Below, piece by piece: positions 14,526 through 34,383 of a stretch of DNA of 64,000 bases (its first letter is position 1; each line of letters opens with the position of its first letter). The notes beneath the pieces are model-generated. The model did no database searches. It was not told where the DNA came from and was given only the letters and a program-made list of their open reading frames with translations. Made by a program: the position numbers and the translations under genes. The DNA lies in assembly GCA_020696385.1 (NCBI GenBank), contig JAEHCQ010000001.1, forward strand, positions 352,001 to 416,000. The letters are read 5' to 3'. Source of the stretch: Methanobacteriota archaeon (GTDB lineage Archaea; Thermoplasmatota; Thermoplasmata; SG8-5; JAGLSY01).

Positions 14526-17093
14526 TCACTCTTCATCATCTGGCTCTATCTCTTCTTCCAGCCCGCTGAGTTCCGCATCACTTATCACGTGCTGCGGTTT
14601 CTTCTCCGCGTGCTCGGCCTCTTCAATGGCTTCTTCCACTTCTTCAGGAGCCACAAGCCTCGTCACACTGCATACTTTATCATCTTTCTTCTTCAGGCGC
14701 ATGATCTTCACTCCCTGGGTCGCCCTGCTGATGATCCTAATATCTTTAACTGGTGTGCGTATGACCATGCCGCTTTCTGAAGTTACGATAAGCTCGTGCT
14801 CATCCGTAACTTCCCTGACGGTGACAACCTCTCCGTTCCTTTCGGAAGTTCGGATGTTTATCACACCTTTGGCACCGCGCTTGGTCTTCCTGTAATCCGA
14901 GACATTGGATCGCTTTCCGTATCCGTTCTCCGTAACTGTCAAGAGAACGCTCTCTTCATCCACGACGGCCATTGAAACGACCTCGTCGTCGCCCACCAGC
15001 GTCATTCCCTTTACACCGATGGAATGCCTGGATACTGTTCTGACGAGAGATTCTTCAAACCTCACAGCCTGGCCTTTTCTGGAGGCCAGGATAATTTCTT
15101 TGGAACCATCGGTCATAGCCACTCGAACCAACTCATCATCCTCTCTTAGCTTGACAGCCCAGATACCAGTTACTCTAGGTCTCTTGTAAGCTGAAAGCTT
15201 CGTCTTCTTGATGATACCTTTCTTGGTGGAGAATATCAGGAAATGATCCTCATCGAAATCCTTGACCGGGATGGCTGTCTGGACATACTCATCGTCTTCC
15301 AACCGTGGAAGAATATTGACTATGGCCTTGCCCTTCGCATGACGACCTCCTATCGGTATTCTATAACCCTTGAGCCAGTGCACTCTTCCTTTATTTGTGA
15401 AGAAGAGCATGAAATTGTGAGTTGTCGTGACATACATATCTGTTATGATGTCCTCTTCCTTGGTCTCCATACCTATGAGGCCGACACCTCCACGGCGCTG
15501 TTGCTTGTATGTGTCTAATGTAAGTCTCTTAATATAACCGGTCTGGGTCATGGAGATGACGATATCCTCTTCTGGGATCAGATCCTCAATATCCATGTCA
15601 TCCGCATGCACGATAATATCTGTCTTACGCTCATCACCGTATCTTTCTTTTAACTCGGCCAGCTCTTCCTTGATGATCCTCATGACGCGCTCTGGTGTCT
15701 CAAGGATATTTGTAAGGTCGGCAATGACATTCAACAGAGCGGAGTATTCGTCCTTCACGCCTTGTCTCTCCATGTTGGTAAGTTTCTGAAGCCTCATGTC
15801 AAGGATGGCTTTCACTTGTTCAAGTGAAAGCATGAAATTGCCCATGAGCCCTTCTCTGGCTTCTTCCGCGGTCTTGGATTTTCTGATAATACTGATGACA
15901 GCATCGATATTATCAAGAGCGACTATCAGTCCCTCAAGTATGTGAGCTCTGGCCTTTGCCTTGCTCAGGTCATATTCGGTCCTGCGAACTACAATTATTT
16001 TTCTGTGATTCACCCAGTGTTCCAGCATGACCTTGAGGTTCATGACCTTTGGCTCATTGTCCACAAGAGCCAAGTTGATGATACCGAAGGTCGTCTGCAT
16101 CTGCGTGTGCTTGTAAAGGATATTGAGAACAACTTCCTCCATCGTGCCTCTCTTGAGCTCGATGACGATCCTCATTCCCTTCCTGTCACTCTCATCCCTG
16201 AGGTCGACGATTCCCTCGACCTTCTTGTTCTTCACAAGATCCGCGATATTCTCGATGAGCCTGGATTTATTAACTTGATATGGAATTTCTGTGACGATGA
16301 TCCGGCTCTTGCCATTGTCCATTTCCTCAATGTGACTTTTAGCCCTTATCCTTACACGCCCTCGGCCAGTGTTGTAAGCTTCGATTATGCCCATCATCCC
16401 GTATATGGTCCCGCCAGTTGGGAAATCCGGGGCCTGGATGAATTCCATCAGATCCGCAATTTCGGCATCTGGATTGTCTATAAGGAAAATAAGGCCATCC
16501 ACCACTTCTGATAGATTATGTGGTGGGATATTGGTCGCCATTCCGACCGCTATTCCTGATGATCCATTGATTATGAGATTTGGAAGTCTGGAAGGCAAAA
16601 CTGTTGGTTCCTGAAGACTGCCGTCGAAATTGTCCACGAATTCCACGGTTTCTTTATCAATATCGGCCAGCATTTCCTCCGCTGTCCGTCTCATACGACA
16701 TTCTGTATAACGCATGGCCGCCGCGCTGTCGCCGTCCACGCTACCGAAATTACCCTGGCCATCTACCAGCATGTACCTTAGTGAAAAGGGCTGGGCCATT
16801 CTGACCAATGTGCCGTAAAGTGCCTGGTCACCATGAGGATGATACTTACCAAGAACGTCACCGACAACACGGACAGACTTCTTGAAGGGGCGGTTATGTC
16901 CGAGTCCAAGTTCATTCATACCGTGCAGTAATCTACGGTGTGCTGGCTTCAATCCATCCCTAACATCCGGAAGAGCTCGTCCGACTATGACACTCATCGC
17001 ATAGTCGATATAACATTTCTTCATCTCGTCCTCTATGGGCTTCGGGATCTCACGCCTTCCCAGGGTTTCCTCATTTATTTCCATATCTACCAT
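14526..17093 (-). CDS. gyrA: DNA gyrase subunit A
   Basis: [15 protein letters not shown] catalytic Tyr, GyrA-box QRRGGVG, acidic tail. Confidence 0.98.
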
Positions 17094-17111
17094 CTACAAT
17101 CACCCCTTGAT

Positions 17112-19211
<2,100 letters not shown>

Positions 19212-19337
19212 TTATTACACCATCTAGAATTCTAACATTATCCTAACTTACGCTGCCTATTCTGTCAAAACCTTTATGAAGGATATTACCTTTTACCACT
19301 ATGGATTAAATCAAATTGGGATCGGCGAGGATTGATA

Positions 19338-19697
19338 ATGGCAAATATTTCACAGATAGAAGATGCACTTCATTCGATAAAGAAAAGTGAAGGAGTTATG
19401 GATGCTGTAATGGTATCCCGTAGTGGTATGCATATTGCAGGTGATGTTCCATCTGGAGTACACACAGAAACATTCGTCGCCATGTCTGCTATTTTACTAG
19501 GAGCGGCTGAAACCTCGACTTCCGAGCTCAGAGATAAACTGAAGCTGGTGACCATAAATCTTGAACATTCTACAATATTCATCAATACCATCAGCAACAG
19601 GGGGATATTGGTTCTGAGATCCAAAACAGAAGTTACCAGAGATCAGATCGTGGATATAATCAATACCCATGCCAGTAAGATCGAATCAAATCTTTGA
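19338..19697 (+). CDS. Roadblock/LC7 (MglB-like) domain protein
   Basis: GVMDAVMVSRSG...FVAMSAILLGAAE pattern, about 119 aa. Confidence 0.88.
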   Translation: MANISQIEDALHSIKKSEGVMDAVMVSRSGMHIAGDVPSGVHTETFVAMSAILLGAAETSTSELRDKLKLVTINLEHSTIFINTISNRGILVLRSKTEVTRDQIVDIINTHASKIESNL

Positions 19698-22061: not shown

Positions 22062-22219
22062 TGGGAAAAATGAGGTCTATTCGACGTATATTCTCATTTT
22101 TCACGCCAGCCCAATTCTGAATTAATTAAAGTACTGGCTAAGAATTGGGCGTATATATTCGATGTCTCATATTGTTTTATGAGTATGATAACTAATTGAC
22201 GAAAATAAAATGGTATGAG

Positions 22220-22292
22220 GGCCGGGACCGAGAATTGAACCCGGGACGGGGGCTCCACAGGCCCCTAGGATAACCACTACCCCACCCCGGCC
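22220..22292 (-). tRNA. tRNA-His(GUG); G-1 encoded, CCA not encoded
   Basis: Cloverleaf: GCCGGGG/TCCCGGC acceptor, GGGGC-CTGTGGA-GCCCC anticodon arm, TTCAATT T-loop, C73. Confidence 0.96.
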
Positions 22293-22452
22293 ATACTGTG
22301 CGATTGATTACTTATTGTGGGAACGTGGAAGACCTACAAACATGACATTATATAAAAATTTAGCAGGATACATATCCAAAATGAGTATTTATTGGATTCA
22401 ATTTAATATTAGGGAGCTATCATTTATATCGGTAAAGTGCATTTCCTCCAGT

Positions 22453-23478
22453 ATGGTAGAAGGGGAAGGGCCAATTCCCATAATATCAGCCAGTGATCTG
22501 GAAAAATATGGATACTGTCCATTGAGCTGGTGGTTGAGCATTGGCCTGTCGAATGATAACGAGGAAGATAAAAAAAGAGTTCTGGCAACAGGCACAGAGA
22601 AGCACAAGAGCCTGAGCAAGGACCTCAATAGTATCCTGGAGGGCGAGAGCATGGCGAAGGAATCCGAGACAACGGTCCTATGGTTCGCCATAGCGGCCAC
22701 TCTGATATGCCTGGTGGGACTTTCTCTGGTATTCAAGGCAGACCTTAATATTGGACTTATAATGGGCGTGATCGCCCTTATATGGATCCTGGCGGCATGC
22801 TATTTCCTTTATCTCGCAGAGACCATATCACAGAAAAAGACCAAGATGATCTATCAGAGGATCATTCTCATCTTCGCCATTGTGGGGGCCATAATAGGCG
22901 TGAATTCCCTCACAGTTCTGGAGCGATATTTCAGCCCGGAAGGAGCTGAGATCTTACTTGCACTTTCTCTTGTCTGGCTAATTGCCGCTTCTTATTTCCT
23001 GTACAGATCGCTAAAACATGTGCACGGAGCCATGAAAAAGAGACATCTGAGGAAGGTGAAGGAACAGATAGCGTATGTGGATACTGATGATAAAAAACCG
23101 AAATTATTCATATCCAAGAAACTTGGGTTGAGTGGCAGGCCAGACTATGTACTTCTGATCGATGATGGGCATATACCTGTCGAGGTCAAGACCGGTCGCA
23201 CACCACGCGGTCCGCTTTTCTCCCACATAATGCAAACAGCGGCCTACTGTATCCTGATAGATGAGGAATATGGCGAGGCTCCTCCTTATGGTATCCTGAG
23301 ATATGAAACAGCCGAGCACGAGATAGAGTATGATGATTCTCTCAAGGATCTGGTCATAACAAAACTTGAAGAGATGAGGAATATATTTATATCAAAGGAA
23401 GTGCACAGGAATCACAATAAGCCAGGCAAATGCAGGAATTGTTCAAGAAGAGCAATATGCCAGGAAAGGTTGGATTAG
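22453..23478 (+). CDS. Stand-alone Cas4-like PD-(D/E)xK nuclease with four inserted TM helices
   Basis: ISASDLEKYGYCP, LSGRPDY, PVEVKTG, QTAAY, KCRNCSRRAIC; four hydrophobic helices between YCP and the catalytic core. Confidence 0.88.
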   Translation: MVEGEGPIPIISASDLEKYGYCPLSWWLSIGLSNDNEEDKKRVLATGTEKHKSLSKDLNSILEGESMAKESETTVLWFAIAATLICLVGLSLVFKADLNIGLIMGVIALIWILAACYFLYLAETISQKKTKMIYQRIILIFAIVGAIIGVNSLTVLERYFSPEGAEILLALSLVWLIAASYFLYRSLKHVHGAMKKRHLRKVKEQIAYVDTDDKKPKLFISKKLGLSGRPDYVLLIDDGHIPVEVKTGRTPRGPLFSHIMQTAAYCILIDEEYGEAPPYGILRYETAEHEIEYDDSLKDLVITKLEEMRNIFISKEVHRNHNKPGKCRNCSRRAICQERLD

Positions 23479-23583: not shown

Positions 23584-23925
23584 CTATTTGATGTCCTGTT
23601 CATAATTGAGACCGCTGAGAAGAGCGATTTCCGCCTTTTGGATCTCCCTTCCAAGGTAGGCCGCATGCTCCATTCTTGAGACCAGATTCTCTCTGACTAT
23701 GGTATGACAAAGAGCTTCAGCATTCCTTCCACATACCGTGGCCATGAGCTTTCCAGTATCGGTCTTCTTGGAATCCTTACCCTTGGAGACATTCTCATAG
23801 AACTCGACAACTATCTCCTTTCTTGATTTATCTATGAATATTACAAAGAATCCTTTTGGATCCAGTGTCAGGCGCACATCCTTCTCTGCTTCTATTGGCT
23901 CTATGTCCATATTGAGGTCCTCCAT
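23584..23925 (-). CDS. DUF4346 domain protein
   Basis: LDPKGFFVI...HAAYLGREIQKAEIAL...YEQD. Confidence 0.88.
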   Translation of the reverse strand: MEDLNMDIEPIEAEKDVRLTLDPKGFFVIFIDKSRKEIVVEFYENVSKGKDSKKTDTGKLMATVCGRNAEALCHTIVRENLVSRMEHAAYLGREIQKAEIALLSGLNYEQDIK

Positions 23926-24896
23926 TATTCCAGCTCCTTTTCCACTTGATCTCTGGCCTCGACCATGTTTTTCAGTTTCTGGCAGGCGACCTTTTGATCA
24001 AGGTTCCTCAATCCGCAATCAGGATCGAGTAAGAGCTTGTCCTCACTAAATAGGTCGAGCCCCTTTAAAATCCTTTCTTTGATTTTATTGACAGGCTCTG
24101 CTTCGTTCACATCGGATCGAACACATCCAAATCCCAGCTTCTGAGGGAAATCAAATCCAGCCACAAAATTATCCAATCCAGTATGCGCCGCGAACTCATG
24201 ATCAAGAATATCAACCTTGATCTCAATGAGGTCTTCGAACAGGGGCTGGATGTCACCACATACATGAAGGGCTTTGTACACATTCGTGTTCTTCAGAATT
24301 ATCTCGACCAGGTCCTTGCCGTATTCAGGCCGATCTATCGAGAAGAAGGGCTCGTCCACCTGTATGACATCGACGATGTCCGAGATGGCTTCCACTTCTT
24401 TTGAAAAAGCCTCCGCGATATCAAAGGCCAGGTTTTCCACATTCCCATAATGCTCATCCACGCAGGAGCGTGCCATCGTATACGCTCCAGTTATGATGCC
24501 CTTGATCTTCACATTGTCTCCAATAAGACCTCTCGCATACAGGAGATCGTCTTTGGTTATCGGGGAATTGAATGATATATCGCCAATGACCACTGGCCGA
24601 GTCTTCATCCTTATTCCATTCAGCTTCGAGGCGAAGAGAGTGACCATGTCATTCCGGGTCTGTCCATCCGATATGATGTCTATGCCAGCATCCAGCTGGG
24701 CCTGTACAGATCGTTCTAAACTTATTTTGAATGGATCTGGATCAATAGATGTATCCAGATCATTGGGTGATCCTTTCATAGATGTGATACGCCCCACATC
24801 AATGTTGTATGACCTTTCGAAATCCCGACCCAGAGGTCTGGCCGGGAAGCTTCCGACGACCGTGGTCGTCAATCTACGTCCGCTCACTTCACTCAC
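23925..24896 (-). CDS. Core (single-domain MetE-like, MesA-type) methionine synthase
   Basis: TTVVGSFP, ISDGQTR, IQVDEP, Zn ligands HVC/E/PDCG; no N-terminal folate-binding half; GTGA overlap with mtrH. Confidence 0.9.
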   Translation of the reverse strand: MSEVSGRRLTTTVVGSFPARPLGRDFERSYNIDVGRITSMKGSPNDLDTSIDPDPFKISLERSVQAQLDAGIDIISDGQTRNDMVTLFASKLNGIRMKTRPVVIGDISFNSPITKDDLLYARGLIGDNVKIKGIITGAYTMARSCVDEHYGNVENLAFDIAEAFSKEVEAISDIVDVIQVDEPFFSIDRPEYGKDLVEIILKNTNVYKALHVCGDIQPLFEDLIEIKVDILDHEFAAHTGLDNFVAGFDFPQKLGFGCVRSDVNEAEPVNKIKERILKGLDLFSEDKLLLDPDCGLRNLDQKVACQKLKNMVEARDQVEKELE

Positions 24897-25822
24897 TTCA
24901 ATCTCCTCTTTGGATGGTTCTCGGGGATCTCGATGCCGAAATAATCCTCTCCGCCTTCCGCGATGAACTTGTCCACCATAGCGATGAAGGGGAATATCTG
25001 GCCAGCATTCCTCATCGGGCCATATACACAATAGTCAGCCCCCATCATAACGGGGAGAGCATTCGCTCCGACATCGCAAGTCAAGTATGCCTCGCGATGT
25101 GTCTTTCTGTAATCTTTCATCCAGAGCCATGATTCCACGGTGTTATGGATCGCGCATCCTGCTGGCAATCCCCACTTGTTCTTCATCACGGGGATCGACC
25201 TGATGGTCTCCGCAGTATTATGGTCAAAAGGAGTTGCTCCAGTATCGATTATCATGTTTGGGATATTGGCTTCCTTCGCAATATCCAGAAGGCCTTGATC
25301 CAAAAGGCCAGCACCATTTTCCAGTATCTCCATCCTGCCATCGGTGCTCATGTTCTTCGGATTGTAGCCCAGCACGATGGCACAACCTGGTGGGTTCGCT
25401 GCCAGTGCTTCTTTCTCCATCTCTTCCAATCCCAGATTCAGTGAATTGTAGATAAGCCTCTTTGAGACTCCGATCTCTCCAGCATGGTCCAGTACCTTCG
25501 CCCGTAGTTCGCTTTCAGGAACATCCACGCATATCGGTCTGTTCTCCGGAACCCGGTCAAGAACAAAGCTCAATCGGGTCTCTATCTGCTCCTCCGACCC
25601 GATGAATATATCGCATATTCCTGGATTGCCAGTCATTTGACTTAGCTCTTCCTGGGTGGCGATAAAGCCATCTATTTCCTCCATGGCTTCCGGTGAATGA
25701 TCTATGTATTTCTTTCCGTAAAATACGGTCCCGAACAGTACGGTGGGCGATTCCCCAGGTTGTCCGCCCATGCTCATATCGCCTATTTTTATCTTAATTT
25801 GCTCTTTTGAAAAGTTCAACAT
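24893..25822 (-). CDS. mtrH: MtrH/MtxH-family methyl-pterin:corrinoid methyltransferase
   Basis: FSKEQ...GGQPGESPTVLFGTVFY, IYNS, GLPAGCAIHN, GADYCVYGP. Confidence 0.93.
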   Translation of the reverse strand: MLNFSKEQIKIKIGDMSMGGQPGESPTVLFGTVFYGKKYIDHSPEAMEEIDGFIATQEELSQMTGNPGICDIFIGSEEQIETRLSFVLDRVPENRPICVDVPESELRAKVLDHAGEIGVSKRLIYNSLNLGLEEMEKEALAANPPGCAIVLGYNPKNMSTDGRMEILENGAGLLDQGLLDIAKEANIPNMIIDTGATPFDHNTAETIRSIPVMKNKWGLPAGCAIHNTVESWLWMKDYRKTHREAYLTCDVGANALPVMMGADYCVYGPMRNAGQIFPFIAMVDKFIAEGGEDYFGIEIPENHPKRRLK

Positions 25823-25823
25823 A

Positions 25824-26411
25824 TTAACTCTCCTCCACAGGCATTTGCTCAAGCTCGAGGAAGGGATCCAGTATCAGGTCCTTGTGGAATCCTATCTTGC
25901 CAGTTAATCGCTTTACAGACGGTCTGTCGCCATTCTTATTGTCCACAAGCTCCACGATATAAGGCTCACCAAATGGCTCATGATCGATCGCCAGTTGTTC
26001 CTCCACGACCTTCATGATCTCGACCTTATCGGTTATGTCGATCATATTGACGATCTCTATCTGCTGGCGAAAGCGTTCGATCGCCTCTTCATCAATGTTC
26101 TCGATGAAGGGAACCGCGCCCTTCGCGCCAGATATCCTTCCATTGTCATCAATACCCTTGCTGTGAAGTGATAGAAGGCTGTGGCCAGACCTATGGCCGC
26201 GTACTTCTTCACCACAGAGTATTAGAATTCGAATATTCGGATTGGAGATGACATTCGCCACAACCTTCTCAATACCCAGGTTCTCGGTCTTCATGTGACC
26301 CCATATCGCGACTTTCTCTTCGGGAAAGTCAATGATACTGGCCAGTGTGACTATCGAAACTGAACTATTGGGATTTCCAATTGTGTATTCTCCTCTCCAT
26401 GGGTACATCAT
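25824..26411 (-). CDS. mtrA: Soluble MtrA/MtxA-family corrinoid protein
   Basis: KTENLGIEKVVANVISNPNIR, EVRGHRSG cobalt-ligand His, GAVPFIEN; no C-terminal TM anchor. Confidence 0.93.
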   Translation of the reverse strand: MMYPWRGEYTIGNPNSSVSIVTLASIIDFPEEKVAIWGHMKTENLGIEKVVANVISNPNIRILILCGEEVRGHRSGHSLLSLHSKGIDDNGRISGAKGAVPFIENIDEEAIERFRQQIEIVNMIDITDKVEIMKVVEEQLAIDHEPFGEPYIVELVDNKNGDRPSVKRLTGKIGFHKDLILDPFLELEQMPVEES

Positions 26412-26893: not shown

Positions 26894-29800
26894 TTAGCTT
26901 TGTTTATAAACTTTTTTAATGTTCTTGGCCAGTCTTTCACTGATGCCCTTGACCTCGAGCAATTCAGCTTCAGATGCCTTTTCCAGATCCTTGAAAGATG
27001 TGAATCCAGCATCGTATATGGCCTCTGATTTGGAGAAGCCAACACCGGGTACGCCAACCAGAGCGTTGATGATCTCCTTCTTCTTTTCCTCCGGAGTCTT
27101 GGCCTTTGGCTTTCCTTTCTTATCGTGCTTGATGTCCGTGATGTCCTTGACATCCGTGGTGTCCTTGACATCCAGTATGTCTTCCAATTCCTCTATCACG
27201 GCATCTTCCTTCTCTTCTTCGGTGAACTTGGTTCCGCATTTGTCACAGAACTTGTCATCGATATTACCGATAGCGTCGCACGATGGACATCGGAATTGCT
27301 CACCGGCTATCATATCATCTTCGATATCCTCCGCAAGCTCAATTTCTGTTCTGTCCATCTCTGGCTCGTGAGTTTTTGCTTCCTCTTCCTTCTCACCCTG
27401 TGCTCCAAGTTTTCTTACAGCGGCATCCCGATTCTTGATCGCATCTCTGAAGCCAGGTTCTATTCCAAGTGCCCTTTCGAAGCATTCCAGAGCGAAGGAA
27501 TGCTCCTCCATCCTTGATAGTGCTATTCCTTTATTGTTCCAAGCTTCCGGATGTTCCGGATCGAGCTTAATAGCCTTATCCAGAACTTTTATCGCCTTGT
27601 CCAGCCTATCATCACTTATCAGAACGAAGCCTTTATTGGACAATAACAATGCAGTTTCATTTATGTTCAATGCCATGTCAAGGCATGATACGGATTCCCT
27701 GAACCTGTCCATCTCGTACAGAGCGGCGGCCTTATTGGCCCACGCATCACCATTGGCCTGATCTATGTCAATGGCCCTATCAAAATATTTTATGGAATCT
27801 TCTGGCTTGCCAGAGGCCAGAATGGCATTACCCTTATTGCACCAGGCTTCTGAGAAATCCGGGTCGATCTGTATAGCGCGGTCGAAGCAGAGGATGGAGT
27901 CGTCATGCTTTCCGATACTGAGTAAAGCAGCACCTTCCGCATTCCATACCTCGGATGCTCCGGGCTCAAGCTCGATAGCCCTATCAAAGCTCTCGATAGC
28001 CCCCTGGGTGTCTCCAAGGTTCATGTAGATATTTCCCCTTTCTATCCAAAGTACTGGCTCTTCTTCCTCCAGCCCTATGAGCACATCATTGGCCTTCAGG
28101 GCATCTTCGAATTCCCCGATCTCGATCAATGATGTTGATCGATTCATGAGGGCGGAAATATTATCGGGCTCCTTCTTGAGGACCAGGTCGAAATATTCAA
28201 TGGCATCATCAAATCTTCCCATCAAGTACAGTAAATTGGCTTTTTCCAGGTATGTGGATGAGCGTTCTTCCAATTCGATGGATTGATTCAGACAATCCAG
28301 TGCTTCATCATACTTCATCAGTCTTATGAGCATTTTAGACTTCTCAAAGAGAACAGCCTCTTCTCTCATCTCGTCTTCCAGAGCCAGTTTTTCCTCCACC
28401 TGTTCAAGTTCAGGTGGATCACCTACTGGCAATTCGGATTCAGGTAATGGAACCTTATCCTCCACTCCCAAACCACATTTGGAGCAGAAGGCTGCTTCTG
28501 CCGCAAGAGGTTCGGCACAGGCGGAACAAGCGGAGCCTGTTCCGACACCCATAAGATCGGCGAAGTCATCGGTAAGTGATGCCTCGCTGACAGTTGGCTT
28601 CTTACTTTCAATAGCAGCAAGCCTGGCCTTTTCCTCTTCTTTTTCCCGGGAATCCTTTTCCTCATCCGCGAGCCTCTTTTCTTCTTCTTCCAGCTTCAGT
28701 TCTTCTTCGGCCTTTTGTTTCTCTGCTTCTTCCCTCGCCCTTTTTTCTTCCTCTTCTATCAGGCGTAATCTCTCTTCTTCAGCCTCTCTTTCCCTTCTCT
28801 CTTCTTCTTCAATGAGACGGGTCTCATCGATTTCCTTCAGGGCTTCTTCAGCCTTTTTCTTTTCCTCAATGGCCAGGTCCCAATAGGGCTTTAGAAGTAG
28901 GGAATTATCAAAGGCATCGATGGCCCTTCTTGGGTCGCCATTTGCCATCTGTGCAATTCCCTTTTGATAGTAAACCTCGGGGCTTTTCTCAATGCCCAGT
29001 ACTTTGTCATAAGATATGATGCTCTGCTCATACTGCTCCATATCATGCAGTAATAGTCCTCGATTCAGCCAGGCTTCCTTGTAATCTGCCTTTTTGGCTA
29101 TGGCTCTATCGAAGGAATCCAGGGCATTACCATGATCCTTCATATATTTGAGTGCCACACCCTTATTGTTGAGAACATTGATATTGTCTGGCTCAAGGTA
29201 CAATACCTTATTGTAACATAGCACGGCTTCCTCATGTTTTCCCTGCTCGTGCAATGTCGCACCTTTATTATTCCAGGCCTTGGTGAAGTTCTTGTTTATC
29301 TTCAATGCCTGGTCATAGCACTGGATCTCATCATCATACCTTTGAAGATCGTAATAAATCGCTCCAAGATTATACCATGATTCCTCACTATCTGGATTCA
29401 CTTCCAGAGCTTTTTTGAAGCATTCGGCAGCTTCATCCAGTCGCTTCATGGCCTTCAGAACATTGCCTTTCATTATCCAGGCAAGGTCGTAGTTCGGCTT
29501 CATCTTCAAAGCATTATCATAATATTCGATGGCTTTCTTGAAATTACCCGAATTGAAGAAATCATTACCCCAGCCCATTTGGTTCTCCAGTTCGTCAATA
29601 CTTGGAAGGAATCTTTCTCCATCCAGCTCAAGTACCTTTTTCGAGTCCTGTTTCTTGAGGTCATCATCAAGTTCCAGTTCCTTGATAAGTAGCCCGAACT
29701 TGTCACCATCTGCAATGTTAACTCCAAGCAGATCGGCATACTTCCTCGCGTCCTTGGAGAGCTTGGTCGTGGATATGAAGATGGCCTTTACATCCATGCC

Positions 29801-30055
29801 ATCTCTCTTTCGCCCGACCAGTTTCTGAATATCCTCCGGGCCAGCATCTGAATGGCCACGCTTTAATTTTATCACGAAGGGCTCGGAATTACCTTCCACC
29901 TCCCTTAGTGCTTCTATCTCCACATCATCAGCCCGCATGCGGGAGCTGGTTACCTTGAAATCCATCTTCTCCAGCAATCTATTGGATAGTATGCGGAACT
30001 CCTCAGGATCAAGGTCATTCACTATGTTCATGAGATATTCCTGGCTCATACTCAT
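26894..30055 (-). CDS. Large TPR protein with N-terminal Mrr-like domain, coiled coil, two Zn ribbons and C-terminal HhH
   Basis: LDPEEF...LLEKMDF...AIFISTT...IADGDKF Mrr-like pattern; many WxNKG TPRs; CSAC/CSKC and CPSC/CDKC; VPGVGFSK and VKGISE HhH. Confidence 0.88.
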   Translation of the reverse strand: MSMSQEYLMNIVNDLDPEEFRILSNRLLEKMDFKVTSSRMRADDVEIEALREVEGNSEPFVIKLKRGHSDAGPEDIQKLVGRKRDGMDVKAIFISTTKLSKDARKYADLLGVNIADGDKFGLLIKELELDDDLKKQDSKKVLELDGERFLPSIDELENQMGWGNDFFNSGNFKKAIEYYDNALKMKPNYDLAWIMKGNVLKAMKRLDEAAECFKKALEVNPDSEESWYNLGAIYYDLQRYDDEIQCYDQALKINKNFTKAWNNKGATLHEQGKHEEAVLCYNKVLYLEPDNINVLNNKGVALKYMKDHGNALDSFDRAIAKKADYKEAWLNRGLLLHDMEQYEQSIISYDKVLGIEKSPEVYYQKGIAQMANGDPRRAIDAFDNSLLLKPYWDLAIEEKKKAEEALKEIDETRLIEEEERREREAEEERLRLIEEEEKRAREEAEKQKAEEELKLEEEEKRLADEEKDSREKEEEKARLAAIESKKPTVSEASLTDDFADLMGVGTGSACSACAEPLAAEAAFCSKCGLGVEDKVPLPESELPVGDPPELEQVEEKLALEDEMREEAVLFEKSKMLIRLMKYDEALDCLNQSIELEERSSTYLEKANLLYLMGRFDDAIEYFDLVLKKEPDNISALMNRSTSLIEIGEFEDALKANDVLIGLEEEEPVLWIERGNIYMNLGDTQGAIESFDRAIELEPGASEVWNAEGAALLSIGKHDDSILCFDRAIQIDPDFSEAWCNKGNAILASGKPEDSIKYFDRAIDIDQANGDAWANKAAALYEMDRFRESVSCLDMALNINETALLLSNKGFVLISDDRLDKAIKVLDKAIKLDPEHPEAWNNKGIALSRMEEHSFALECFERALGIEPGFRDAIKNRDAAVRKLGAQGEKEEEAKTHEPEMDRTEIELAEDIEDDMIAGEQFRCPSCDAIGNIDDKFCDKCGTKFTEEEKEDAVIEELEDILDVKDTTDVKDITDIKHDKKGKPKAKTPEEKKKEIINALVGVPGVGFSKSEAIYDAGFTSFKDLEKASEAELLEVKGISERLAKNIKKVYKQS
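27135..27173. repeat. 18-bp tandem repeat in coding sequence
   Basis: TCCGTG(A/G)TGTCCTTGACA x2 encoding DVKD(T/I)T. Confidence 0.7.
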
Positions 30056-33000
30056 CTTCCCCCCTGCATTCTTTTTGTGCTCCTGCTCTTCCAGGAACGT
30101 GCCTCTTCGAAATCAGGATCCAATTCCAGAACCTTATCAAAGCTCTTGATGGCCTCTTTATATTTCTCGGCCTCATGCTGAGTTATTCCCCGGGCCAGCC
30201 AATTTTTAGGATTCTCAGCGCCCATCTTAACAGAATAATCCATGGACCTCATGGCATCGTCATATTTTCCGATGTCCTTCTGGGCAACACCCAACAATCT
30301 CCATACATAATCATTTTCGGGGTCCAGCTTCAAAGCTTCCCTGTAAAGTTTAATGGCCTCATTGTACCCGCCATTCTTGTACATCAAACGTCCTTTTCCT
30401 ATCAAGGCATCGACATTCTCCTCATCCAGCTCCAGTGCGTGGTCATACGCTTCCCTGGATTCCTCTATCTTCCCCTGGCTTCGATGAACATCTCCCTTCA
30501 AAGTGAGAGCCCGGACATCATCTGGATATATCCGCAATGCGCTTTCCAGTGCCTGGATCGCGCCACCCCACTTCCCTTTCTTGAGCATGATATCCGCCTT
30601 GCCGATCAATGCATCCGCATTTGTTGGGGCGAATTCAAGCAATCCTCTGTATATCTTTTCAGCGTCATCATCCTTGCCCTTCTCCATCAACATGTCCGCC
30701 TTCTTTATCCAGGCATATTCATATTCATCATCCAGGCTTATTGCTCGATCATAGAATTGTAAGGCCCCACCCCATCTTCCTTTCTGATGGAGTACATCTG
30801 CCTTTTTGGCCCAAGCTTCTGGCTCATCTGGGTCGATATCAGATGCTTTCTCATAGCATTTGTAGGCCTCGTCATATCTCTCAAGTCCTGCAAAGCCATC
30901 CCCGATACCCAGCCATGCATCTTTATTGTCCACATCTGCCTCGATAACACCATTGAAGCACACGATGGCATCCTCATACAATTCGGCCTCGAGATCCATG
31001 GATCCAAGTAAAAGCCGGGCTTCGACGTGTTCCTTGTCCAGCTCCGTGGCCATCTTCAATGCGATAGAAGCATCATCATATTCTTCAATATCATAATGCC
31101 CTCTTCCTTTCATATAATAGGCCTCGGCATTGTTCTCATCAGATTCAAGGACCCTGTTCAGCATCTTGATCCCTTGTTTCTCCCGGCCCATCTCGATCAA
31201 TAATCCAGCCTTGTTTACCTGGAATTGATAATTATCCGGGTTCATATTGATGCCTGTGTCATAGCATAACAAGGCTCCCTCTTCATCGCCTTCTTCTACG
31301 AGCTCCTCCGCCCTTTCAAGAAGTGCGATCTCGTCATTGGACATCTCTGTATCATCGGAGATGTCTTCATCTTCTTCATCATCTTCATCTTCGATCTCAG
31401 CATCTGCTGGCTCGATTATTTCTGGCTCATCAAGTACGAGCATTTCGTCGATATCGGCCTCTGCCTGCAATTCATCGACATCTATCCCCTCTTCGATGTC
31501 GAGGTTATCCTCGATATCCATTTCTTCTTCAATATCGGGAATATCGGCTATTTCCTTGCTCGGAGCCTCGGCATCGGGCTTCCCACTGCCCATTTTGCCG
31601 AAGATATCATCCACATCCTGGAACTCAGCTTCGACATCGATGGTTCCTAACTCAGCCTCGACATCGTCTTCATCTTCTGTATCAAATGCATCTGTGAGAT
31701 CGGCGATATCTGGCTTTTCTATCTCATCCACGGTATCTTCAATTTCATCTTCCTCATCATCTTCCTCATCATCTTCCTCATCATCTTCCTCATCATCTTC
31801 AACATCATCTTCAACAGTGTCTTCCTCAAAGGCCTCTTCGATATCGGAGAGTATATCTTCTTCAGGTGAAGTATCAACTGGCTCATCAATATCTGCAATA
31901 TCTGCCAGTTCATCCACTTCTTCCTCAATAGTGGATGTTGGCTCGATGGCTTCATCAATACCCGCCATTAGCTCGTCCTCCAGAGAAAGTGGCGCATCAT
32001 CTTCGATGGCTTCCTCTTCGATCTCGGCCATGGGTTCTTCAATTATTGGCTCTGGTTCGGGCTCAGGTATGATATCTGGTTCTGGAGCGACCACTACCTT
32101 TTTCTCCTCTTCCACAGGCAGTGGTTCTGGCTTTGGTTCTTCCATTGATTCCGCACTCTGCGGAATATCTGATATTGACGACTTTGCCAACCTTCTTATG
32201 AATTTAGGTCTGGATGTGATGGACTTGGCCAGATCATAGCATTCAACGGCCTCGTCTATATTGCCAAGCTTGGTGAGCGCATCACCCTTTCCGATCAAGG
32301 TCTCCGGGTGATTCTCATCCAGTCTGAGCGAGAAATCATAACACATTATGGCCTCTTTGTATTTGCCAATCGACATCAAAGAATCGCCCTTGTGCTTCCA
32401 TATACCAGCTTCCTTCGGAGATAGTAATAACGCCCTGTCAAAGCTCCTCAGGGCGTCCTCCTCCTCACCAATATTGAGGTGAGATGTTCCCTTGACATTC
32501 CAGATCATTCCATCTTCTGGATCCATTTCAAGGTATTCCTTGCTGGCCTCGATGGTCTCATTAAATCTTTCAATTGAATAAAGGACCACGATAGAATTTC
32601 GCCTTGCTGGCATGTATCCATCATCTTCCTCAAGGGCCCTTTCATATTGCTTCAAGGCCAGGTCCGCACATCGACCCCTTATCATCTTCGCATCCTTGTC
32701 ATCAAAAGCAATATTGTCCTTCATTGCATTGACATTGAGCCAGGATATGTTCCCAAGCATGGTCTCCGCCCTGGCGTCGAAGCCAAGATCCGTATATCGC
32801 TCATGAAGTTCATGGGATATGTCCTTCAATCTATTTCCTATATCGACCGCTTCCTTCGTGATCAGAATATCCTCATCTGGCTGTATCTGCACCGGTATGC
32901 CAAGATGTAGCAGGAAGCGTCTGATCTTGGACACCTGCTTCTCGATATCCCCCTCTGACTCGATATTATCATCGATCTTATTTACATCATCTTCCAGAGA

Positions 33001-33234
33001 TGTCAAGTCTTCAAAAGAGATCGAGTTGGTGGATGAAGGACCTATAACGATGGACACAGAGCCTTTCTTTCGGACCCTGGACAGTGGGCTTTCGCCAATT
33101 AGTGAATAGCCAGTGATAAGAGCCGGCGAATTTTCTAGACCTTGTTTCGTACATGTGCCGCATATTAGGCCATCACGGATCAGCTCTCCACAACCTATAC
33201 AGTCCAACAATTCACCACATAGTAAATATACCAT
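30052..33234 (-). CDS. Large TPR protein with N-terminal Zn finger and long acidic disordered linker
   Basis: CIGC...CGTC; TPR arrays flanking a roughly 290-aa D/E/P-rich segment; ATGA overlap with the next gene. Confidence 0.88.
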   Translation of the reverse strand: MVYLLCGELLDCIGCGELIRDGLICGTCTKQGLENSPALITGYSLIGESPLSRVRKKGSVSIVIGPSSTNSISFEDLTSLEDDVNKIDDNIESEGDIEKQVSKIRRFLLHLGIPVQIQPDEDILITKEAVDIGNRLKDISHELHERYTDLGFDARAETMLGNISWLNVNAMKDNIAFDDKDAKMIRGRCADLALKQYERALEEDDGYMPARRNSIVVLYSIERFNETIEASKEYLEMDPEDGMIWNVKGTSHLNIGEEEDALRSFDRALLLSPKEAGIWKHKGDSLMSIGKYKEAIMCYDFSLRLDENHPETLIGKGDALTKLGNIDEAVECYDLAKSITSRPKFIRRLAKSSISDIPQSAESMEEPKPEPLPVEEEKKVVVAPEPDIIPEPEPEPIIEEPMAEIEEEAIEDDAPLSLEDELMAGIDEAIEPTSTIEEEVDELADIADIDEPVDTSPEEDILSDIEEAFEEDTVEDDVEDDEEDDEEDDEEDDEEDEIEDTVDEIEKPDIADLTDAFDTEDEDDVEAELGTIDVEAEFQDVDDIFGKMGSGKPDAEAPSKEIADIPDIEEEMDIEDNLDIEEGIDVDELQAEADIDEMLVLDEPEIIEPADAEIEDEDDEEDEDISDDTEMSNDEIALLERAEELVEEGDEEGALLCYDTGINMNPDNYQFQVNKAGLLIEMGREKQGIKMLNRVLESDENNAEAYYMKGRGHYDIEEYDDASIALKMATELDKEHVEARLLLGSMDLEAELYEDAIVCFNGVIEADVDNKDAWLGIGDGFAGLERYDEAYKCYEKASDIDPDEPEAWAKKADVLHQKGRWGGALQFYDRAISLDDEYEYAWIKKADMLMEKGKDDDAEKIYRGLLEFAPTNADALIGKADIMLKKGKWGGAIQALESALRIYPDDVRALTLKGDVHRSQGKIEESREAYDHALELDEENVDALIGKGRLMYKNGGYNEAIKLYREALKLDPENDYVWRLLGVAQKDIGKYDDAMRSMDYSVKMGAENPKNWLARGITQHEAEKYKEAIKSFDKVLELDPDFEEARSWKSRSTKRMQGGR
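31745..31816. repeat. 12-bp tandem repeat encoding acidic DDEE/DDVE units
   Basis: TCATCTTCCTCA x4 plus TCATCTTCAACA x2. Confidence 0.9.
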
Positions 33235-33359: not shown

Positions 33360-34283
33360 TCAAAGACCGATGATCGCGGTAACTCTGATCTCCTTCATGG
33401 CCACACTATCATCAATAAAGGCAATGGTGGGAATATCATGCCCATGATCACACAAAGATGCGAACCTCTCCGTGAACTCGGTCGCCCAGGCCTCGTTTAT
33501 ACCGAACCCTTTGGCAAGGAATATGGCGCATTTTGGATCCAGGACATTCAAGGATAGCCAGTCGGACTTTTGAAGCTCTTCATTTATGACAAATATAGGA
33601 TCATCACCCCGCCATTCGGCAATATCCATTCTGAAGATGTGGCTGATCTTAAATGTCTTCTTCAATTCCTTCAAACAACCTCTGTCCAGATCTGTGAATT
33701 CCCTAATGGGTGTGGCGACCACCTTGTTCATCACCTTGAAGGCCTCCATGAGAGGAAGATTGGGTACTTCCTTCAGGATTTGATCATTCTTGAAGACCAC
33801 CGCACTGCCCCACTTTCTCAAAGCCTCCAATTGGTGTGTGGAAGTGTGGCGTTTTTGAATCCCCTCGGCATTCAGCGGGGTGGTTATCAGAGCGAGCGGC
33901 GTCGCTTTGGATATTCTGGCAGATCTACAGACCAGGGATGCTAACCATCCTCCATTATTTCCACCAAGGCCAGCTATGGGAAATACAAGGTCATAACCTT
34001 TCAGAAGATAGCTGAGTTGGGACTCGGCATCATTGTCAGCATAATGTGAATCTTTGGCCAGCGCCGACGACTGTGCGTCCTTGGAGCTGATGATCATCTC
34101 CTCCTTAGCACCTGTATTGGATATTTTTCGCCTATCGGAGGCGATGGCTATCTTCTTCACATTGGGGGGAAGATCAATACTGCGGAGGGCATTGCAACCC
34201 ATACCACCACACCCCACGACAGCTATCTTGAGAGGGTTCTGGCTCGCGCTTTTTCTGAAAATCATGGTCCCATCCACAGTCAT
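33360..34283 (-). CDS. Highly divergent FtsZ/tubulin-family protein
   Basis: KIAVVGCGGMGCNAL T1 loop, AGLGGNNGG degenerate signature, TTPLNAEG, FKVMN, IRVTAIIG. Confidence 0.85.
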   Translation of the reverse strand: MTVDGTMIFRKSASQNPLKIAVVGCGGMGCNALRSIDLPPNVKKIAIASDRRKISNTGAKEEMIISSKDAQSSALAKDSHYADNDAESQLSYLLKGYDLVFPIAGLGGNNGGWLASLVCRSARISKATPLALITTPLNAEGIQKRHTSTHQLEALRKWGSAVVFKNDQILKEVPNLPLMEAFKVMNKVVATPIREFTDLDRGCLKELKKTFKISHIFRMDIAEWRGDDPIFVINEELQKSDWLSLNVLDPKCAIFLAKGFGINEAWATEFTERFASLCDHGHDIPTIAFIDDSVAMKEIRVTAIIGL

Positions 34284-34383
34284 CCGCTCAGAATTGGGTT
34301 CAACCCCTAAAAACTTTTGGCAGATTATTATTGCGAAAAGTGGATATGTCATAGTAAATTACCCACCTTAGAAGTTGAACATT

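Follow-up and report, generated by a model that had tools for sequence, protein, structure and literature searches.

A typical Cas4, the nuclease known from CRISPR systems, is a single, uninterrupted soluble domain of ~160-220 residues. The wider PD-(D/E)XK superfamily includes AddB, RecB, Dna2, Exo5 and MGME1, and to our knowledge none of these nucleases is membrane-integral. Not every Cas4 is tied to CRISPR: the Solo-Cas4 of Methanosarcina mazei is encoded outside CRISPR loci and was reported to be an iron-sulfur (Fe-S), Mn/Mg-dependent DNA nuclease with four conserved cysteines, purified tag-free as a complex of ~318 kDa on size-exclusion chromatography (PMC12501428), behaviour that points to a soluble protein. 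A nuclease that does work at a membrane has been described in Escherichia coli, where SNIPE (PD-lambda-1) is membrane-bound and cuts phage DNA during injection; it combines a GIY-YIG nuclease with DUF4041 and usually one N-terminal transmembrane (TM) segment, and its membrane anchor positions the nuclease at the DNA entry site and prevents self-cleavage (PMC13190303). Here we analyze a Cas4-family gene from a Thermoplasmatota archaeon whose product is predicted to carry four TM helices inside the nuclease domain itself. The gene lies in a stretch of 64,000 nt (hereafter the window) that covers positions 352,001-416,000 of the forward strand of contig JAEHCQ010000001.1 (assembly GCA_020696385.1), part of a genome of 2.28 Mb in 50 contigs that is 94.5% complete.

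By profile, motifs and fold, the protein is a Cas4-family nuclease, that is, a RecB-like PD-(D/E)XK enzyme of the iron-sulfur type. The NCBIfam cas4 model TIGR00372 matched residues 195-337 over model positions 38-179 with 84.1 bits (cut-off 65), and the Pfam models PDDEXK_1 (PF12705; E 3.3e-13, 50.6 bits, cut-off 22) and Cas_Cas4 (PF01930; residues 216-337, E 8.7e-9, 36.1 bits, cut-off 22.7) were also well above their thresholds. A PADLOC scan of the protein matched only Cas4 models and, weakly, the DruK nuclease. The database search returned 1060 relatives at E<=0.001, and the family alignment used throughout this work consists of the window protein and 48 of 120 listed relatives (49 sequences, 47-88% identity). 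The window protein contains the motifs Y21-C22-P23, G228-R-P-D231, E244-V245-K246, Q261...Y265, H318-R-N-H321 and C327-R-N-C330...C336. Residues C22, C327, C330, C336, G228-R229-P230, E244, K246, Q261, Y265 and H318-R-N-H321 were invariant in all 49 sequences, as were E17, K18, Y21, P23, W26, W27, G47 and H51 in the N-terminal segment, and D231 was kept in at least 90% of them. The four invariant cysteines, one N-terminal and three in a CX2CX5C arrangement, predict an Fe-S cluster.

The AlphaFold2 model calculated on the family alignment had a mean predicted local distance difference test score (pLDDT) of 77.2 and a predicted template modelling score of 0.66, with pLDDT values of 88-97 over residues 221-310 and 92 at residues 11-20. 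When the model was compared with the PDB by Foldseek, the top eight matches (E<=0.001) were all Cas4 or Cas4-family chains, from the entries 8d3q, 8d3l, 7mi5, 7mi4, 9iab and 4ic1. They represent SSO0001, the Argonaute-associated protein ACE1 of the Cas4 family, and the Cas4 found in adaptation complexes of types I-C and I-G; MGME1 and Dna2 came next. The query-normalised template modelling score was low (~0.3) because the insert described below does not align. The family profile aligned the N-terminus to that of type I-C Cas4 (8d3l) with a weak score of 5.6 bits and with the cysteine and the G...H motif in register. In SSO0001, a histidine in the N-terminal part of Cas4 was reported to be a metal ligand (PMC13621843), and H51 is probably its equivalent.

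The N-terminal segment, with Cys22 and His51, and the nuclease core are separated by an insert of ~130 residues that contains four hydrophobic helices. The hydropathy profile showed four hydrophobic segments (Table 1), and in the AlphaFold2 model all four were helical, the first and the last being parts of two long helices (residues 37-93 and 162-200) that join them to the cytoplasmic side. Because the insert follows Cys22 and His51 and precedes the D/ExK core, the catalytic domain is split. In the 49-sequence alignment the TM residues L109, I110, W111, L113 and Y120 of the first hairpin and F141, W175, L176 and A179 of the second were invariant, and no conserved charged residue was found inside the TM helices. 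The mean pairwise identity was 0.57 in the TM helices versus 0.66 in the nuclease core; conservation of the helices thus comes close to that of the nuclease, a hint that they do more than anchor it. A Pfam match of residues 49-175 to DUF1673 (E 0.011, 16.1 bits, cut-off 30.4) was taken as noise or weak similarity of composition, and the best scores of a search of the ESM Atlas with residues 40-200 (0.81, 0.78 and 0.77) were all below the 0.9 level and served as leads only.

The distribution of positively charged residues was used to orient the helices. Over the 49 sequences, lysine plus arginine averaged 2.6 in the 15 residues before TM1, ~3.6 around the loop between TM2 and TM3 and 5.6 after TM4, as compared with 0.5 in each of the two outer loops, which gives sums of ~11.8 over the three predicted inner segments and ~1.0 over the two outer ones. 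Following the positive-inside rule, this distribution predicts a membrane-integral protein with both ends and the nuclease facing the cytoplasm. The presence of an Fe-S domain and the lack of an export signal would also fit a cytoplasmic placement.

The two hairpins are true duplicates. The local alignment of TM1-2 with TM3-4 scored 65, versus 26 +/- 5 for plain shuffles (none of 2000 reached 65) and 29 +/- 5 for shuffles confined to each helix or loop (none of 5000), and when the family profiles of the two hairpins were compared with each other by hhalign, the probability was 99.2% and the E value 1.8e-19. An earlier reading of this stretch from its letters alone (the sequence-only reading) had noted intact PD, EVK and QxxxY motifs, four Fe-S cysteines (YCP plus CRNC...C), four TM helices inserted between the first cysteine and the catalytic core, and an apparent duplication relating TM1-2 to TM3-4, and had proposed a nuclease placed at the cytoplasmic face of the membrane. 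The motifs, the cysteines and the duplication are borne out by the alignment, the shuffles and hhalign, hydropathy and the structural model agree on the four inserted helices, and the charge distribution predicts the same orientation; the refinement that we add is that the insert also follows the conserved G47...H51 motif, besides the first cysteine.

The hairpin is a modular element that has been duplicated to different extents among lineages. Among complete representatives, forms of ~264-280 residues have two TM segments and one hairpin, those of ~320-367 residues have four TM segments and two hairpins, and those of ~495-645 residues have seven or eight TM segments with up to four matches to the hairpin profile; forms with two, three to four and eight TM segments also occur in other classes of the phylum. 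The families that we designate f18 and f11 have a short relative in which one N-terminal TM segment stands directly before the core, with no hairpin insert. With a family core hidden Markov model (HMM), the multi-TM forms (31 sequences) reached 118-253 bits and the single-TM forms (five sequences) 85-94 bits, as compared with 15-21 bits for three Cas4 proteins from CRISPR operons of the same genomes; another five Cas4-like candidates fell short of E 1e-3 with this model. In a maximum-likelihood tree of 39 core domains, the 36 membrane forms were separated from the three operon Cas4s with support of 100/99. As far as the tree and the profile scores indicate, the membrane forms are one clade, closer to each other than to operon Cas4. 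Since single- and multi-TM forms group together, membrane attachment, rather than the exact insert, appears to be the character that the clade shares.

The gene is independent of CRISPR systems. Profile searches of the whole 94.5%-complete source genome found no match to Cas1 or Cas2, and the protein was the sole match to TIGR00372 in that genome. No CRISPR-like array was found in the source genome by a crude k-mer repeat scan, a weak test of arrays. CRISPR arrays are often missing from metagenome-assembled genomes (MAGs), which makes an array scan weak evidence. The scan picked up only perfect tandem repeats, located at C22:179355, C33:151406 and C46:40505 of the source genome (three to four copies, the periods being 74, 81 and 62 bp); they are not arrays and none of them is on the window contig.

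The comparison of gene content across the class led to the same conclusion. Cas1 was found in 105/301 sampled genomes, and its occurrence within families differed from that of the membrane Cas4, which was present in 24/25 genomes of f7 (Cas1 in 1/25), 20/20 of f23 (1/20), 9/9 of f21 (0/9) and 25/25 of f16 (10/25). In f11, all 54 of 54 genomes had weak matches to the membrane Cas4 query and 12/54 had Cas1; the tallies for this family, and not those for the others, rest partly on three unpublished genomes (G187, G086 and G248). In the five genomes examined for this purpose, an ordinary Cas4 adjoined or was fused to Cas1 in each case, and the membrane form lay elsewhere on the chromosome. The protein is therefore a solo (non-CRISPR) Cas4, as the sequence-only reading had proposed from the absence in the window of the cas1, cas2 or array that would define a CRISPR association; in the 94.5%-complete genome, too, no Cas1 or Cas2 was found.

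An adaptation Cas4 that is encoded apart from the cas operon and trims prespacers for Cas1-Cas2 in trans could still be imagined, given that the protein scores above the curated Cas4 cut-off and that public records label its relatives "CRISPR-associated protein Cas4". However, this label appears in genomes without a CRISPR system, Cas1 is rare where the membrane Cas4 is universal, and genomes that do have Cas1 keep their own operon Cas4, to which the core HMM gives only 15-21 bits. With no Cas1 or Cas2 found in the source genome, we regard this explanation as extremely improbable. The protein resembles CRISPR Cas4 (8D3L/8D3Q, 4IC1) in fold, in the D/ExK and QxxxY motifs, in the one-plus-three arrangement of cysteines and in the N-terminal cysteine helix with its G...H motif. 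It differs in its length of 341 residues, in the 130-residue, four-TM insert that lies inside the domain between H51 and the core, in the lack of a link to cas1, cas2 or an array, and in its coexistence with an ordinary operon Cas4 from which it is separated as a clade, the multi-TM forms being ~100 bits or more apart by the family HMM. Compared by description, M. mazei Solo-Cas4 and the window protein are both non-CRISPR Cas4 proteins with four cysteines, but the window protein is predicted to be membrane-integral.

The gene behaves as a core gene: it is chromosomal, single-copy and vertically conserved across the phylum Thermoplasmatota. All 13 of 13 genomes of the order had one match each, one of them cut by a contig end, and identity fell with distance, from 89% within the genus to 71% within the family and 45-62% within the order. 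In the class sample, 228/301 genomes had a match, which in most families was full-length and single with E<1e-57. Since these samples consist of related organisms, the genomes counted are not independent of each other. The first 200 residues, which comprise the N-terminus and the membrane part, were used as a separate query, which at E<=1e-5 had a match in 130/301 genomes sampled from the phylum. Among 1.84 billion representative proteins the same query found only 102 at E<=0.001, which makes the module a rare one overall. A pattern scan of the GTDB species genomes returned 396 relatives, and the best 80 of these all came from MAGs of archaea, with the labels Thermoplasmata, Thermoplasmatota, Methanomassiliicoccales, Methanobacteriota, Euryarchaeota, Saliniplasma or simply "archaeon". 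No relatives were found on IMG/VR viral contigs.

We then compared the surroundings of the gene in 41 loci (40 from different genomes and the window). The Cas4 gene was recognized in 38 of them; in L016, L034 and L035 it was missed by the open reading frame (ORF) caller, and these loci were left out of the adjacency counts. No defence island or uptake operon was found around the gene in the 41 loci. The recurrent neighbours were housekeeping genes that varied by lineage: GlmS was convergent downstream in 13 loci, an eIF-2B-family gene lay upstream in three, and TIM, FBPase, AcnX and GlmU-like genes were also seen near the membrane Cas4. An unnamed protein of ~110 residues was encoded convergently in seven loci. 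A TPD-family gene (PF14811) stood directly upstream on the same strand in 9/38 loci, with gaps of -7 to +69 bp. Its product, a protein of ~260 residues that matches PF14811 with 146 bits (for example at L021:8015-8827 on the - strand, and in eight other loci), belongs to an uncharacterized family.

These results bear on the possibility that the protein is a dedicated antiviral gatekeeper of innate immunity, which would cut viral or plasmid DNA at injection as SNIPE does while the membrane keeps the nuclease off the host chromosome. The predicted arrangement of a membrane-tethered, cytoplasm-facing nuclease is exactly that of SNIPE, and SNIPE without its TM domain was reported to attack host DNA (PMC13190303). 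Relatives of Cas4 are parts of immune systems, in keeping with the PADLOC matches to Cas4 and DruK models only, and in some lineages genomes with a CRISPR system also carry the membrane Cas4 as a gene of its own. On the other hand, the homologues of SNIPE are sporadic (<=10% of genomes per clade) and poorly conserved in their N-terminal membrane region (PMC13190303), whereas the membrane Cas4 is present in every sampled genome of its order and in most families, with invariant TM residues. The housekeeping neighbours, the lack of a defence island and the absence from IMG/VR viral contigs do not favour a gatekeeper either, and neither GIY-YIG nor DUF4041 is present, the domain scans with Pfam and PADLOC having listed only Cas4, PD-(D/E)XK and DruK models. 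The likeness to SNIPE lies in a nuclease that TM helices hold (by prediction) on the inner side of the membrane; the differences lie in the Cas4 fold, the hairpin-repeat insert within the domain, the near-universal presence and the conserved TM residues. Taken together, we consider a dedicated gatekeeper unlikely.

An alternative is that the protein is the inner-membrane part of a route for the uptake or scavenging of environmental DNA, together with a secreted protein that has a Lamin-tail domain and two PLD-like domains (LTD-PLD). A gene for such a protein, with a signal peptide, lay immediately upstream on the same strand in 5/38 loci (L028, L031, L032, L033 and L039; gaps of -38 to +24 bp) and was present in four further loci. 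However, the LTD-PLD family occurred in 178/301 genomes of the class, including 48/48 of the one class family that mostly lacks the membrane Cas4, and it was not found in f9 and f19, which carry the membrane Cas4. In the source genome the two genes are ~47 kb apart. In addition, the TM helices have no conserved charged or polar residues that could line a channel, and the substrate of the PLD domains may be lipid instead of DNA. We therefore rejected LTD-PLD as a general functional partner, since the family is widespread and present where the membrane Cas4 is not, and a role in uptake seems to us very unlikely. The LTD-PLD proteins themselves are secreted proteins of 600-900 residues (for example L028:8009-10615 on the - strand and L031:4347-6986 on the + strand), and the source-genome copy (C11:422164-424575, -) lies ~6 kb past the end of the window.

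The explanation that we find somewhat more probable than its negation is that of a core, membrane-integral Cas4 that faces the cytoplasm and acts on nucleic-acid ends at the membrane. In this protein, the first cysteine of the cluster (C22) and the G...H motif with H51 come from the segment before the insert, and the three remaining cysteines and the D/ExK and QxxxY motifs from the segment after it. Two long helices, 37-93 and 162-200, are predicted to leave the bilayer so that the assembled active site would hang a few nanometres under the membrane. There, a constitutive core nuclease may attack free ends of nucleic acid on the inner side of the membrane; candidate substrates are the ends of incoming DNA or of broken or membrane-associated chromosomal DNA, and the tether would hold the enzyme off the bulk of the chromosome. 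Such a role would resemble that of the AddAB/RecBCD housekeeping end-nucleases, perhaps with restriction of foreign linear DNA, more than that of a mobile defence gene. Mobile defence genes are not usually near-universal and single-copy with strongly conserved membrane helices.

The sequence-only reading had suggested that the protein processes incoming DNA, in uptake or antiviral defence, or the membrane-attached chromosome; these roles are proposals that are partly argued against by the lack of a defence island or uptake operon in the 41 loci and by the near-universal, single-copy occurrence. The relation to AddB, RecB, Dna2, Exo5 and MGME1 is that of a common PD-(D/E)XK superfamily, with Dna2 and MGME1 among the structural matches, and the parallel with these housekeeping enzymes of DNA ends is one of function by analogy. 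In contrast to them, the window protein has no accessory domain, and no helicase domain was found in it by the domain scans; the match to Exo5 (PF09810) was below threshold (E 0.12, 12.3 bits, cut-off 25) and covered residues 11-87 only. Thus, the membrane Cas4 may work like SNIPE or like the AddAB/RecBCD-type end-nucleases at most by analogy.

Several observations weigh against the explanation of a core end-nuclease at the membrane. That the protein inserts into the membrane, has the topology given above, binds an Fe-S cluster and is active as a nuclease is predicted in each case; the AlphaFold2 model is only moderately confident in the membrane part (block pLDDT 52-73), and the TM helices draw on few kinds of amino acid, which inflates their identity. 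The single-TM forms have no N-terminal Cys/His segment and only three C-terminal cysteines, and therefore a coupling of the membrane to the active site is not general. The order of branching within the membrane clade is not settled by the tree, which has only three outgroup sequences and a bootstrap that did not converge. The one class family mentioned above is mostly without the gene (any match in 4/48 genomes), and families f41 (1/42) and f35 (6/24) of the phylum sample were largely negative with the first-200-residue query; these losses indicate that the gene is dispensable in some lineages. Neither the neighbourhoods nor the phyletic patterns yielded a conserved partner that would point to a pathway; no neighbour was universal in the 41 loci. 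NurA (PF09376), which we considered as a complementary end-nuclease, was present in 87/301 genomes in a patchy pattern that was not complementary, and the source genome has both genes; we drew no conclusion from it.

A further point of this kind concerns the substrate, which might not be DNA. In the f59 lineage (frames of 652-727 residues in four sampled genomes), the one genome examined encodes a membrane Cas4 with two C-terminal TRAM domains (PF01938, 57 bits), a fusion that hints at a single-stranded nucleic acid or RNA as substrate. As nucleic-acid-binding modules on the predicted cytoplasmic end, these domains also speak for a substrate of nucleic acid in the cytoplasm. TRAM is known chiefly from enzymes that modify RNA and from small RNA-binding proteins of archaea. 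The protein could accordingly be imagined as a membrane-associated enzyme that processes RNA or single-stranded nucleic acid rather than DNA ends. This would have to be reconciled with the fact that the characterized Cas4-family enzymes, namely SSO0001, the type I-C and I-G Cas4 proteins and M. mazei Solo-Cas4, all cut DNA according to the PDB titles and to PMC12501428, and with the fact that the TRAM fusion was seen in a single family only, and we hold an RNA enzyme to be quite improbable.

In a more far-reaching reading, the array of hairpins would be a sensor of the state of the membrane rather than an anchor, in which a change of that state joins or separates the two pieces of the active site and so switches the nuclease on or off. 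This reading would build on the position of C22 and H51 on the helix that becomes TM1 and on that of the D/ExK motif and the cysteine triad after the helix that continues from TM4. The entry or budding of viruses, membrane fusion, the curvature of the division site or a loss of membrane potential might be the triggers, and the number of hairpins (one, two or four) would tune the response. We consider a sensor improbable. If it were true, the family would be a phylum-wide, constitutive, membrane-gated nuclease, which might either be what archaea have had since ancient times in place of SNIPE-type immunity or serve to remove DNA from the division site as it closes.

No transmembrane Cas4 is described in the titles or the beginnings of the abstracts of the literature that was searched, and the same literature gave no sign of an established function of the family, which the sequence-only reading had named as the outcome that would speak against it. 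The Cas4 phylogenomics study of Hudaiberdiev et al. 2017 (PMC5704561) uses neither "transmembrane" nor "Thermoplasma" in its main text; its supplements, like arCOG or other database annotations, may mention the family. If the predictions hold, a whole clade of solo Cas4 proteins is built into the membrane and conserved across a major archaeal phylum, a reach that we judge from the genomes sampled across the phylum and from labels of MAGs (Thermoplasmata and Methanomassiliicoccales, for example). The membrane Cas4 offers a concrete, well-conserved case in which to study the work of a nuclease at the membrane of archaea, and would be of interest for the evolution of Cas4, for archaeal DNA metabolism and for membrane-based immunity.

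The coordinates of the gene, of its parts and of the relatives discussed above are collected in Table 1. The longest open frame around the gene runs on the + strand from a TTG at 22315 to the stop codon at 23476-23478 and would encode 387 residues. The ATG at 22453, which gives 341 residues, is the supported start, as judged from three features: the relatives align from residues 1-11 onward, the frame of the homologue from the same genus has only 350 residues around a match of 341, and a TATA-like element precedes this ATG. The spacing of this element suggests that the mRNA may be leaderless, a reading that rests on general knowledge of archaeal promoters.

Table 1. Positions of the membrane Cas4 gene, its segments and related forms (window coordinates, except where a locus handle is given).
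Feature	Position	Strand	Basis or remarks
Membrane-embedded Cas4-family nuclease (predicted), coding sequence	22453..23478	+	341 aa plus stop; translation, TIGR00372, PDDEXK_1, Cas_Cas4
TATA-like element TTTATAT	22423..22429	+	Centred 27 nt 5' of the ATG; read from the sequence
N-terminal Cas4 segment, residues 10-55	22480..22617	+	C22 at 22516-22518; G47...H51 motif with H51 at 22603-22605
TM hairpin repeat 1, residues 71-121 (TM1 ~73-93, TM2 ~100-121)	22663..22815	+	Hydropathy peaks 2.55, 2.51; model helices 37-93, 98-124
TM hairpin repeat 2, residues 134-184 (TM3 ~136-155, TM4 ~166-184)	22852..23004	+	Hydropathy peaks 2.52, 2.04; model helices 128-153, 162-200
Basic linker after TM4, residues 185-215, predicted cytoplasmic	23005..23097	+	Residues 185-204 average 5.6 K+R (lysine plus arginine) vs 2.0 D+E (aspartate plus glutamate), 49 sequences; model helix 162-200 extends from the membrane into it
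Cas4 nuclease core, residues 216-341	23098..23475	+	D231, E244/K246, Q261...Y265, H318-R-N-H321; cysteine triad at 23431-23460
TRAM-bearing membrane Cas4 (f59)	L156:467-2401	-	Two PF01938 stretches after the cysteine triad
Single-TM forms	L058:1498-2013 (-), L056:1024-1863 (+); also L149, L150, L057, L055		~172 aa in f18

The membrane Cas4 gene stands alone in the window. Upstream of it, on the opposite strand, are a tRNA-His gene (22219-22291, -) and the gene for methionyl-tRNA synthetase (MetRS), and downstream it is followed by a convergent PterinBD-DUF4346 gene. The content of the window is that of a core genome, with gyrase A and B, MetRS and genes of the mevalonate pathway. Just upstream of MetRS (14526-19697), the genes gyrA and gyrB for a bacterial-type DNA gyrase lie on the - strand and are followed by a small Roadblock/LC7 gene on the + strand. 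The PterinBD-DUF4346 gene belongs to a corrinoid/pterin methyltransferase module on the - strand (23584-26411), which also comprises a MetE-like Meth_synt_2 gene, MtrH and MtrA; the longest frames of the MetE-like gene and of MtrH overlap by ~140 nt, and one of the two starts is probably further downstream.

A sign change of the GC skew near 34 kb was considered as a candidate replication origin and rejected; the change coincides with a switch of the gene strand, and no Orc1/Cdc6 was present among the ORFs scanned there. A protein of 330 residues encoded at 33360-34352 (-) had a weak match to the tubulin/FtsZ family (34 bits, cut-off 33). Adjacent genes at 26894-30055 (-) and 30052-33234 (-) encode two proteins of ~1050 residues that consist mostly of tetratricopeptide repeats (TPR). 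The first of them has, in addition, a restriction-endonuclease domain (Mrr_cat) at the N-terminus and a zinc ribbon and a helix-hairpin-helix motif at the C-terminus, which makes it an unusual combination of nuclease, TPR and helix-hairpin-helix elements.

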